From contig OZ024742.1 of the NCBI GenBank assembly GCA_964016885.1, positions 301,816,001-301,880,000 on the forward strand: DNA of 64,000 nucleotides, written 5' to 3'. The stretch is from Eledone cirrhosa. Its lineage: Eukaryota. The position numbers were made by a program, and so were the translations under genes. Positions 17,640 through 22,984 of the stretch are shown here, piece after piece. The notes under the pieces were generated by a model. That model was not told the DNA's origin, did no database searches, and saw nothing but the letters and a program-made list of their open reading frames with translations. Numbering within the stretch: position 1 is the first letter of the stretch; the number at the start of each line of letters is the position of its first letter.

Positions 17640-17921
17640 GAATATAGACATAGAATATTCGAAAATATTCTGTATGTTTATAATAAACATTTTGAAGACC
17701 TAATCGCTATAGAATAGAATACGTCACGTATTAGCGATTAGGTCTTCAAAATGTTTATTATAAACATACAGAATATTTTCGAATATTCTATGTCTATATT
17801 CACATATATATCGCTATTTCAGAGCATTTATTCCAATTTCTAATTTCTGCCGGACCGGCACCGCTCTTTCAAACCAGTTCCTGTACACAAGCTAAGTATT
17901 CTATAAGTCTCTAGCTGTGTC

Positions 17922-18010
17922 ATTCTCGATAAAAGCACTGGATATGTAGTCCTGAAGATTTCTAACAAGAATGAAACGCGTAGATTACTTCCCTTGCTTT
18001 TATCGAGAAT
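17922..18010 (+). ncRNA. type I hammerhead ribozyme, copy 1 (predicted cleavage after 17982)
   Basis: GTAGTC-CTGAAGA-TTTCT(AACA)AGAAT-GAAA-CGCG-TA^-GATTAC; stem I extended by the 16-bp helix ATTCTCGATAAAAGCA/TGCTTTTATCGAGAAT. Confidence 0.9.
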
Positions 18011-18231
18011 CTAATTGTAATACGTGACGTATTCTATTCTATAGCGATTAGGTCTTCAAAATGTTTATTATAAACATACAGAATATTTTCGAATATTCTA
18101 TGTCTATATTCACATATATATCGCTATTTCAGAGCATTTATTCCAATTTCTAATTTCTGCCGGACCGGCAACCGCTCTTTCAAACCAGTTCCTGTACACA
18201 GCTAAGTATTCTATAAGTCTCTAGCTGTGTC

Positions 18232-18320
18232 ATTCTCGATAAAAGCACTGGATATGTAGTCCTGAAGATTTCTAACAAGAATGAAACGCGTAGATTACTT
18301 CCCTTGCTTTTATCGAGAAT
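18232..18320 (+). ncRNA. type I hammerhead ribozyme, copy 2
   Basis: Identical to copy 1, offset 310. Confidence 0.9.
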
Positions 18321-18540
18321 CTAATTGTAATACGCGACGTATTCTATTCTGTAGCGATTAGGTCTTCAAAATGTTTATTATAACATACAGAATATTTTCG
18401 AATATTCTATGTCTATATTCACATATATATCGCTATTTCAGAGCATTTATTCCAATTTCTAATTTCTGCCGGACCGGCAACCGCTCTTTCAAACCAGTTC
18501 CTGTACACAGCTAAGTATTCTATAAGTCTCTAGCTGTGTC

Positions 18541-18629
18541 ATTCTCGATAAAAGCACTGGATATGTAGTCCTGAAGATTTCTAACAAGAATGAAACGCGT
18601 AGATTACTTCCCTTGCTTTTATCGAGAAT
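18541..18629 (+). ncRNA. type I hammerhead ribozyme, copy 3
   Basis: Identical to copy 1, a further 309 bp on. Confidence 0.9.
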
Positions 18630-18770
18630 CTAATTGTAATACGTGACGTATTCTATTCTATAGCGATTAGGTCTTCAAAATGTTTATTATAAACATACAG
18701 AATATTTTCGAATATTCTATGTCTATATTCACATATATATCGCTATTTTCAGAGCATTTATTCCAATTTC

Positions 18771-21700
18771 GTATATATATATATATAATATGTATATATA
18801 TATATATATATTATGTATATATATATATATATGTATATGTATATATGTATATATATATATATATATAATATGTATATGTATATATATATATGTGTATATA
18901 TATATATAATATGTATATATATATATGTATATATATATATATATATAATATGTATATATATATATATATATATATATATATATATATATATATATATATA
19001 TATATATATATATATATATATATATATATATATATATATATATATATATATATATATATATATATATGTATATATATATATATATATATATATATATATA
19101 TATATATATATGTATATATATATATATATATATATATGTATATATATATATATATATATATATATATATATATATATATATATATATATATATATATATA
19201 TATATATATATATATATATATATATATATATATATATATATATATATATATATATATATATATATATATATATATATATATATATATATATATATATATA
19301 TATATATATATATATATATATATATATATATATATATATATATATATATATATATATATATATATATATATACATATATATATATATATATATATATATA
19401 TATAATATATATATAATATATATATATATATATATATATATATATATATATATATATATATATATATATATATATATACATATATATATATATATATATA
19501 TATATATATATATATATATATATATATATATATATATATATATATATATATATATATATATATATTATATATATATATATATATATATATATATATATAT
19601 ATATATATATATATATATATATGTATATATATATATATGTATATATATATGTATATATATATATATGTATATATATATATATATATATATATGATATATA
19701 TATATATATATATATATATATATATATATATATATGTATATATATATATATTATATATATATATATATATATATATATATATATATATATATATATATAT
19801 ATATATATATATATATATATATATATATATTATATATATATATATATATATATAATATATATATATATATATATATATATATATATATATATATATATAT
19901 ATATATATATATGTATATATATATATATATATATATATATATATATATATATATATATATATATATAATATATATATATATATATGTATATATATATATA
20001 TGTATATATATATATATATATATATATATATATATATACATATTATATATATATGTATATATATATATATGTANNNNNNNNNNNNNNNNNNNNNNNNNNN
20101 NNNNNNNNNNNNNNNNNNNNNNNNNNNNNNNNNNNNNNNNNNNNNNNNNNNNNNNNNNNNNNNNNNNNNNNNNNNNNNNNNNNNNNNNNNNNNNNNNNNN
20201 NNNNNNNNNNNNNNNNNNNNNNNNNNNNNNNNNNNNNNNNNNNNNNNNNNNNNNNNNNNNNNNNNNNNNNNNNATGTATATATGTATATATATATATATA
20301 TACGTATATATATATGTATATATATATATGTATATATATATGTATATATATATATATGTATATATATATGTATATATATATATATGTATATATATATGTA
20401 TATATATATATATGTATATATATGTATATATATATATATATATATGTATGTATATATATATATATATGTATATATATATATGTATATATGTATATATATA
20501 TATGTATATGTATATATATATATGTATATATATATATGTATATATATATATATGTATATATATATGTATATATATATATATGTATATATATATATATGTA
20601 TATATATATATGTATATATATATATGTATATATATATATGTATATATATATATATGTATATATATATATGTATATATATATATGTATATATATATATGTA
20701 TATATATATGTATATATATATATGTATATGTATATATATATGTATATATATATATGTATATATATATATATGTATATATATATATATGTATATGTATATA
20801 TATATGTATATATATATGTATATGTATATGTATATATATATGTATATATATATGTATATATATATGTATATATATGTATATATATATGTATATATATATG
20901 TATATATATATATGTATATATATATGTATATATATGTATATATATATGTATATATATGTATATATATATATGTATATATATATATGTATATATATGTATA
21001 TATATATATGTATATATATATGTATATATATATATGTATATATATATGTATATATATATGTATATATATATATGTATATATATATATGTATATATATGTA
21101 TATATATATGTATATATATATGTATATATATATATGTATATATATATATGTATATATATGTATATATATATATGTATATATATATGTATATATATATGTA
21201 TATATATATGTATATATATATATGTATATATATATGTATATATATATGTATATATATATGTATATATATATGTATATATATATGTATATATATATATGTA
21301 TATATATATGTATATATATATGTGTATATATATATGTATATATATATATGTATATATATATGTATATATATATGTATATATATATATGTATATATATATG
21401 TATATATATGTATATATATATATGTATATATATATGTATATATATGTATATATATATATATGTATATATATATGTATATATATATGTATATATATGTATA
21501 TATATATATATGTATATATATATGTATATATATATATGTATATATATGTATATATATATGTATATATATATGTATATATATATGTATATATATATGTATA
21601 TATATGTATATATATATGTATATATATATATATATGTATATATATGTATATATATATATGTATATATATGTATATATATATGTATATATATATGTATATA

Positions 21701-22359
21701 TGTATATATATATGTATATATATATGTATATATGTATATATATATGTATATATATATGTATATATGTATATATATATGTATATATATATGTATATATATA
21801 TGTTATATATGTATATATATATGTATATATATATGTATATATATATGTTATATATATATATGTATGTATATATATATGTATATATATATGTATGTATATA
21901 TATATGTATATATATATGTATGTATATATATATGTATATATATATGTATGTATATATATATGTATATATATATGTATGTATATATATATGTATATATATA
22001 TGTATATGTATATATGTATATATATATGTATATATGTATATATATATGTATATATGTATATATGTATATATGTATATATATATGTATATATGTATATATA
22101 TATGTATATATGTATATATATATGTATATATGTATATATATATGTATATATGTATATATATATGTATATATATGTATATATGTATATATATATGTATATA
22201 TGTATATATATATGTATATATGTATATATATATGTATATATGTATATATATATGTATATATGTATATATGTATGTATATGTATATATGTATGTATATATG
22301 TATATATATATATAAATATATGTATATATATATATATATGTATATATATATATATATGT
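18771..22359. repeat. (TA)n array containing an assembly gap
   Basis: Direct inspection; includes long pure (TA)n runs. Confidence 0.97.
20074..20273. other. assembly gap (200 N)
   Basis: Run of N. Confidence 0.99.
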
Positions 22360-22515
22360 AAAAACAAATAACGAAACGAAATTAAATTTCGTTTCGTTAT
22401 TTGTTTTTATCGTTTCCGCTGAACCGGTGCGTACAATGACTCACGTTCTATGCAAATTACTCTACCCACTACTAATTTTCATAGAAAAAGCATATAACGA
22501 TATGTGCTTTTACAA

Positions 22516-22608
22516 TTCTCCAGAGAAGCCGGAAGATGGTTAAATATTGCTGATGAGATGTAATAACATCGAAACTAGTCCAATATTCCTGTCTGGCCCT
22601 CTGGAGAA
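22516..22608 (+). ncRNA. type I hammerhead ribozyme (predicted GUC cleavage after 22580)
   Basis: AATATTG-CTGATGA-GATGT(AATA)ACATC-GAAA-CTAG-TC^-CAATATT; distal helix TTCTCCAGAG/CTCTGGAGAA. Confidence 0.92.
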
Positions 22609-22984
22609 TAGAGGAAATGTGTTTCCTTGAAAACCCGTATGACTCTAAAACCCGGTCCGTCTGTGTGGTTACATACATACTAGCTGACACTCACTGTAAA
22701 GTGTCTAGTGAAAAGCTGAGTACATGTACATATGTATACATGTGTGTATTTATATGCATACTAATACTTCCGTATACATATGTAAATGTACACTTTAAAT
22801 TAATTGTTTAAGCGTCAGTCATACAAAAGTGAGTTAGAAGCGAAACGAAATTTAATTTCGTTTCGTTATTTGTTTTTATCGTTTCCGCTGAACCGGTGCG
22901 TACAATGACTCACGTTCTATGCAAATTAGTCTACCCACTACTAATTTTCATAGAAAAAGCATATAACGATATGTGCTTTTACAA

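Follow-up and report, generated by a model that had tools for sequence, protein, structure and literature searches.

How are the inverted junctions of Penelope-like element (PLE) insertions formed, and does a short palindrome direct their formation? This question is raised by two non-coding tandem repeats, E1 (17639-18770) and E2 (22359-23276), in a 64,000-nt stretch of Eledone cirrhosa DNA (GenBank assembly GCA_964016885.1, contig OZ024742.1, positions 301,816,001 to 301,880,000, forward strand), hereafter the window. Each repeat is inserted in (TA)n and begins with an inverted 5' piece. The initial annotation described both inverted junctions as lying at internal micro-palindromes whose centre base is flipped, and suggested that the palindrome may be a dedicated element for completing integration. 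We find that this description is right about the bases and about the E2 junction, and that it is not borne out by the E1 junction or, within this window, as a general rule. The flip of the centre base likely reflects the joining of two DNA copies rather than a dedicated signal.

Architecture of the two arrays

The window is AT-rich eukaryotic DNA with many (TA)n arrays, open reading frames (ORFs) for reverse transcriptases of the long interspersed nuclear element (LINE) type, and GIY-YIG fragments. E1 and E2 form islands within kilobases of (TA)n, with a scaffold gap of 200 N (20074-20273) between them. E1 comprises 3.35 units of 310 bp, and E2 about 1.9 units of 469 bp; within the arrays the copies agree to 98-99%. 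Their GC contents are 34% and 36%, the longest ORFs starting with Met encode 47 and 68 aa, respectively, and a search of both arrays for tRNA found none.

17639..17733, minus strand: E1 inverted 5' piece, 95 nt, reverse complement of 18018-18112; contains the entire 15-bp palindrome (17718-17732) and two further hairpins
17710..17731, minus strand: E1 spacer, 22 nt, from the inverted piece, between perfect 71-bp arms (17639-17709 and 17732-17802)
17732..18770, plus strand: E1 forward array, units of 310, 310 and 309 bp plus 110 bp, with unit differences at 3-4 positions
18732..18770, plus strand: E1 one-sided extension, 39 nt, past the point where the inverted piece begins; its length fits the PLE 'tail' as defined in PMC8557442
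22359..22396, minus strand: E2 inverted 5' piece, 38 nt, reverse complement of 22841-22878, centre A at 22384
22385..22396, no strand: E2 microhomology, 12 nt, one palindrome arm common to the inverted and forward pieces
22385..23276, plus strand: E2 forward array, about 1.9 units of 469 bp, 98.4% alike
17946..17988, plus strand: E1 predicted hammerhead, core CTGAAGA at 17952, predicted cut after 17982; repeats at 18262 and 18571
22532..22602, plus strand: E2 predicted hammerhead, core CTGATGA at 22550, predicted cut after 22580; second copy 23001-23071

A motif scan of the plus strand identified a type I hammerhead motif, with core and three helices, in all three full E1 units and in both E2 units. 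The predicted helix III is a single pair in each family, capped by the palindromic tetranucleotide CGCG in E1 and CTAG in E2. The two E2 hammerheads match the Rfam model HH9 over its full length, with 35.3 bits (E 5e-7) and 31.8 bits (E 7e-6), which is short of the gathering score of 52. For E1, none of 16 Rfam matches at E<=10 was to a hammerhead family. At gathering score, the whole window gave 0 Rfam matches. MicroRNA-type Rfam matches at the junctions were rejected, as they reflect long hairpins.

Because the hammerheads fix the RNA sense as plus, the inverted pieces stand at the 5' ends of E1 and E2. The inverted piece of E1 matches units 1, 2 and 4 at the variant positions, so these do not distinguish its source unit. 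Target-site duplications of either array are not readable in (TA)n, and each family has one array in the window. In unit coordinates, the end offset is 39 nt in E1, which fits the 30-40-bp PLE tail, and 71 nt in E2, which lies outside it. This architecture, a 5' inverted piece in a (TA)n target, is that of a PLE, as the initial annotation had recognised, and E1 and E2 are very probably PLE-type insertions of hammerhead repeats.

The E2 junction

The internal palindrome of E2 (22841-22865) reads CGAAACGAAATT-T-AATTTCGTTTCG. The terminal copy (22372-22396) has A at its centre and is lengthened to perfect 25-bp arms (22359-22409).

22841..22865, plus strand: E2 internal 25-bp palindrome with T (22853) at its centre; the 56-nt window that folds most strongly in the complementary DNA (cDNA) strand of the unit

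The E2 junction lies inside this palindrome, where the inverted and forward pieces overlap by 12 nt. An overlap of at least 12 nt is available to 4 of the 28,609 possible junction pairs of the unit, three of which fall at another place of the unit, in an imperfect, AT-rich inverted repeat. A palindrome with 12-bp arms appeared in none of 1000 shuffles of the E2 unit and is thus beyond chance. In a model string for simple snap-back of the long cDNA, position 22384 is T, yet A is observed there: the loop has stayed with the inverted piece. This excludes simple snap-back of the long copy, as the initial annotation had argued; its two other proposals, annealing of two same-sense cDNAs and hairpin resolution, both yield the flip.

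The E1 junction

In E1, AATACGT-G-ACGTATT occurs internally at 18019 and 18638, and the copy at 17718-17732 has C at its centre. The palindromes and centre bases reported by the initial annotation for both elements are thus confirmed, as are the unflipped internal copies at 18019, 18638 and 22841. A third internal E1 copy had been overlooked: in the middle unit (18329-18343), a single arm change breaks the palindrome. None of the four internal copies (three in E1, one in E2) is flipped; centre-base variants in internal units, which the initial annotation had named as counter-evidence to its reading, are thus absent from these copies.

18019..18033, plus strand: E1 internal 15-bp palindrome, centre G; also 18638-18652; arm variant at 18329-18343

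The placement of the E1 junction differs from that described. The palindrome lies wholly within the inverted piece, one base from its end, and the junction is outside it. The forward piece begins at 17732 (equivalent to 18042), and the eight bases 18034-18041 are missing from the forward side. Inverted and forward pieces overlap by TA at 17732-17733, a 2-nt overlap that 2,115 of 18,910 possible pairs reach, which is near chance level. The 15-bp palindrome is itself the inner stem of a longer imperfect hairpin (about 18005-18057), and the junction falls at the edge of this hairpin, one base off the register of the outer stem. Additionally, the inverted piece includes a second palindrome with 8-bp arms (17674-17690), which has centre A for T by reverse complementation only and which is plainly no junction. 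The E1 centre is complemented for the same reason, because the inverted piece holds the whole palindrome. The flip is therefore no base change and says only that the loop came with the inverted piece.

Comparison with other inverted junctions of the window

A masked self-comparison of the window revealed three further PLE-type inverted junctions, E0, E3 and E4; finding junctions by their inverted arms favours short spacers.

8359..8805, no strand: E0, PLE GIY-YIG fragment, 132-bp arms (8359-8490 and 8674-8805) with 2 mismatches, spacer 183 nt
41165..41510, no strand: E3, 163-bp arms with 3 mismatches, one hammerhead motif per arm, spacer 20 nt (41328-41347), right extension of about 95 nt
54140..54602, no strand: E4, arms of about 209 bp, identical except for TA-run length, one hammerhead motif per arm, spacer 27 nt (54349-54375)

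The GIY-YIG match of E0 has a Pfam E value of 5e-4, under the cut-off, and its Atlas features lie at 0.96 to a GIY-YIG cluster. The E0 spacer continues the reading frame of the inverted piece, which gives E0 the same polarity as E1 and E2. Three of the five junctions, all but E3 and E4, can be oriented by their spacers, and in all three (E0, E1 and E2) the loop goes with the inverted piece (p = 0.125 under a fair coin). Judged by the hammerhead or coding strand, all five inverted pieces are 5', and they end at the edge of the element. The arms measure 25, 71, 132, 163 and about 209 bp, and the spacers are 1, 20, 22 and 27 nt in four junctions and 183 nt in E0.

No micro-palindrome was found at the junctions of E0, E3 and E4. 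The tally is hence one junction inside a micro-palindrome (E2), one beside one (E1) and three without, and the idea that such junctions sit at micro-palindromes as a rule is not supported in this window. The spacers of E0, E1, E3 and E4 showed no excess of folding over 300 shuffles (50-276 of the 300 fold as well).

Several details of these loci were also observed. In E0 (8359-10360), the inverted piece has a Cys-rich linker upstream of the GIY-YIG motif, and the forward piece ends its ORF at 9075. There is a hammerhead motif at 10258, and a 10-mer common to 8344 and 10224 is a possible target-site duplication; if it is one, the hammerhead lies outside the E0 insertion. The loci at 41165-41606 and 54140-54602 are near-perfect palindromic stumps with related flanking motifs. 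In E4 both arms contain a (TA)n run, which differs in length between them, and 10 bases of the left arm recur in the 27-nt spacer. A second PLE endonuclease-like fragment on the minus strand (43229-43605), which Pfam does not name, is truncated into (TA)n and has no inverted piece in the self-comparison.

Mechanism of joining

The reading that we favour, and consider about evenly probable, is that the PLE reverse transcriptase primed cDNA from both target strands and that the same-sense cDNAs were joined where pairing was possible. A PLE protein would bind a multimeric (or circular) RNA of the unit. Both strands of the AT-rich target would then be cut and extended, the bottom strand copying 2-3 units and the top strand starting internally and copying 38-95 nt. 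Because two minus-sense cDNAs can pair only at a self-complementary stretch, a palindrome would be the best available overlap; it would be used when at hand, as in E2, and a 2-nt overlap would serve otherwise, as in E1. The palindrome would be a preferred site of joining, without being needed as a signal. Where both cDNAs are copied from one RNA, the long one would trail the short one. The short cDNA would therefore always reach further 5' and keep the loop, from which the flip would follow, and the 3' end of the short cDNA would prime the second strand.

The components of this scheme have precedents. In vitro, a purified PLE protein cleaves both strands of the target and extends them, starting at internal sites of the RNA (PMC11167929). 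Twin priming of L1 produces 5' inversions through two cDNAs annealed at short complementarity (PMC2912911), and internal duplications, present in 17% of inverted L1 insertions with a median of 22 bp, arise when the first cDNA passes the internal primer (bioRxiv 2024.08.27.596794). E1 and E2 share with L1 twin priming the 5' inversion, the microhomology at the junction and an inverted piece that reaches further 5'; unlike the L1 products, they have no poly(A) end, a much longer duplicated overlap, PLE enzymes and a tandem template. The E0 junction favours twin-type priming, as it has the same polarity without a palindrome. The 39-nt end offset of E1, which agrees with a PLE tail, also speaks for this scheme. 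Moreover, the left target partly matches the continuation of the element in E1 (ATATAT, one mismatch, T) and in E0 (ATG, one mismatch), as expected from priming on RNA.

Several observations weigh against priming from both strands. The left end of E2 has just 1 base in common with the target. Twin priming leaves little overlap, and the arms of the five junctions, from 25 to about 209 bp, all exceed the 22-bp median of the L1 internal duplications (bioRxiv 2024.08.27.596794). The short spacers of four junctions suit intramolecular fold-back at least equally well, the end offsets of E2 (71 nt) and E3 (about 95 nt) lie outside the 30-40-nt tail, and each family is represented by a single insertion. 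Finally, although GIY-YIG PLE fragments are present, the self-comparison found no partner PLE in the window that shares sequence with E1 or E2.

The fold-back just mentioned leads to minus-strand self-priming, which is possible though we rate it clearly below priming from both strands. Here the 3' end of the long cDNA, or of an antisense strand, would fold back and prime the second strand; a nick in the first-strand arm would then let the hairpin unfold, as happens when parvoviral termini are resolved. The inverted piece, made of the loop and some of the first strand, would always be flipped. This reproduces the observed E2 sequence and accommodates the short spacers of four of the five junctions, and the E2 palindrome ranks 7th of 469 possible cDNA 3' ends by fold-back energy. 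Palindromes at the inverted junctions of Penelope have led to a proposal of self-priming on an antisense template (PMC3846280), and by our reading that model predicts the flip too. The fold-back of E1, however, is unstable (+0.9 kcal/mol; its palindrome end ranks 91st of 310), so that an unusually stable fold-back was rejected for this junction, and E0 would need a 183-nt loop. Self-priming also calls for an extra nick and strand displacement, which the accessible PLE literature does not report, whereas extension from the top strand has been shown in vitro (PMC11167929). As for the parvoviral analogy itself, flip/flop means that both loop orientations coexist in a population and that the hairpin is nicked site-specifically by a Rep/NS1-type protein. 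E1 and E2 resemble parvoviral terminal hairpins in having the loop in reverse-complement orientation, but differ in showing one orientation only and no evident Rep/NS1-type protein or resolution site. The analogy drawn by the initial annotation therefore gains no positive support: the flipped form is the one seen (3/3), and no 'flop' was found.

We consider it unlikely that the palindrome is a dedicated, selected cis-element that completes PLE integration, as had been suggested. The E2 junction does fall exactly in the best perfect palindrome of its unit, and both units hold more perfect palindromes than their shuffles (E2, 0/1000; E1, two with arms of at least 7, 2/1000). In addition, the 5' ends of Adineta vaga pseudo-long terminal repeats (pLTRs) bear 18- and 38-bp palindromes, and E3 and E4 (one copy each) could have natural hairpin arms around their 20-27-nt loops. 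Yet the E1 junction misses the palindrome, the inverted piece of E1 includes two hairpins with longer, 8-bp arms that were copied through, the pieces of E0 are joined over a non-palindromic spacer of 183 nt, and E3 and E4 likewise lack a micro-palindrome at the junction. Hairpins are, besides, expected anyway in structured ribozyme RNAs. A similarly low probability attaches to an origin after insertion, in which template switching or recombination between the arms in unstable (TA)n would have set the spacer orientation or created the inverted piece; the junctions would then be uninformative on integration. Loops between inverted repeats are known to invert. Fold-back duplications at small hairpins follow L1-induced breaks (bioRxiv 2024.12.14.628481). 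Against this stand the five inverted pieces, all 5' and ending at the element edge, the absence of flipped copies among the four internal palindromes, and a layout that is the standard PLE one. An assembly or library fold-back artefact in repeat-rich DNA is highly improbable: E1 and E2 do lie in kilobases of (TA)n flanking the 200-N gap, but five separate elements have one known biological layout, their arms stop at the element ends, and the arms of E0 and E3 have diverged by 2-3 bases.

Relation to known mobile elements

Insertions of endonuclease-bearing PLEs with an inverted, 5'-truncated pLTR (Arkhipova et al. 2013, PMC3846280; Craig et al. 2021, PMC8557442) resemble E1 and E2 in the head-to-head inverted 5' piece and the (TA)n target. 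PLE insertions are described as having a 5' piece in inverted orientation, a tail of 30-40 bp on one side and (TA)n as target (PMC8557442); E1 matches this layout in its tail-sized end offset and E2 in having a palindrome at the junction, a feature reported for Penelope inverted junctions and read as self-priming on the antisense strand (PMC3846280). Unlike these PLEs, E1 and E2 have no ORF, and their bodies are tandem 310- or 469-bp units. The accessible text of both papers does not mention which piece keeps the loop or an inverted centre base.

The units themselves resemble animal non-LTR (long terminal repeat) retrozymes (Cervera and de la Pena 2020, PMC7229834; Li, Clavereau and Pollet 2026, bioRxiv 2026.07.22.740005), whose non-coding units, a few hundred bp long and poor in GC, stand in tandem and each hold a type I hammerhead. 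Retrozymes are further characterised by self-cleavage, by accumulation as linear and circular RNA, and by dispersed multi-copy families with target-site duplications. Some animal retrozymes also have a one-pair helix III with a palindromic tetraloop (PMC7229834), as in E1 and E2. Both arrays are non-coding and below 50% GC, as retrozymes are; the E1 unit falls in the retrozyme range of about 150-450 bp, and the E2 unit is slightly over it. The arrays carry the PLE inverted head, which suggests that they were inserted as ready-made multimers. Word searches of the accessible text found no mention of inverted ends in PMC7229834, and none of inverted ends, palindromes or tails in bioRxiv 2026.07.22.740005. 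Palindromes at such Penelope junctions have been published before (PMC3846280), and E1 and E2 are new members of the retrozyme/PLE kind.

Other features of the window

LINE-type ORFs occur at 32396-35518 and 10494-12809, and also at 26029-26618, 28010-29475 and 39289-40725. They encode an endonuclease and a reverse transcriptase followed by a PHD-finger match, one frame being open for 1040 aa, and represent two related families, about 75% alike, with several fragments. An exact 289-bp direct duplication (28828-29116 and 29187-29475) lies at the end of a minus-strand LINE fragment, and exact 255-bp direct repeats (51131-51385 and 52407-52661) surround the end of a minus-strand LINE-like ORF that has zinc-finger-like motifs (51700-52560). 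A minisatellite of about 2.7 kb (3515-6260) consists of short CT-rich units and keeps three plus-strand frames open.

Occurrence elsewhere and significance

A sequencing-run search with one E2 unit returned 22 rows, of which 16 (12 studies) contain part of it; 9 of these 16 have a share below 0.2 and were not counted as evidence, and the holders listed include no RNA run. Seven runs from 4 studies contain 25-50% of the unit's sampled words, and the best of them may be the source sample. A metagenome scan gave 0 matches to the E2 palindrome. The hammerhead pattern of E3 and E4 had 0 viral matches and three metagenome loci, all unrelated to the window and without inverted arms, and no relative of the E0 endonuclease was confirmed among 51 viral and 212 prokaryotic candidate stretches.

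The significance of these junctions is bounded by their number, five, by the earlier publication of palindromes at junctions, and by the dedicated-signal idea not being borne out. What they add is polarity. We tentatively propose that PLE inverted junctions follow a strict polarity rule, in which the short inverted piece always keeps the loop; no statement of this rule was found in the searched literature, with subscription papers, figures and preprint supplements outside the search. Recording which piece holds the loop at each junction offers an inexpensive genomic test that excludes long-copy snap-back, and a large count could separate the models. How PLEs build tandem and inverted insertions and the second strand is stated to be undefined (PMC8557442; PMC11167929). 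If the rule is true, synthesis of the second strand would be primed by the inverted piece, and genomes alone would suffice to settle how PLEs and their retrozyme parasites finish integration; animal retrozyme arrays would also be shown to land as ready-made multimers via the PLE machinery. PLE mobilisation of retrozymes has hitherto been argued from phylogeny, and the inverted head, tail-sized offset and TA target of E1 and E2 provide direct structural support for it.

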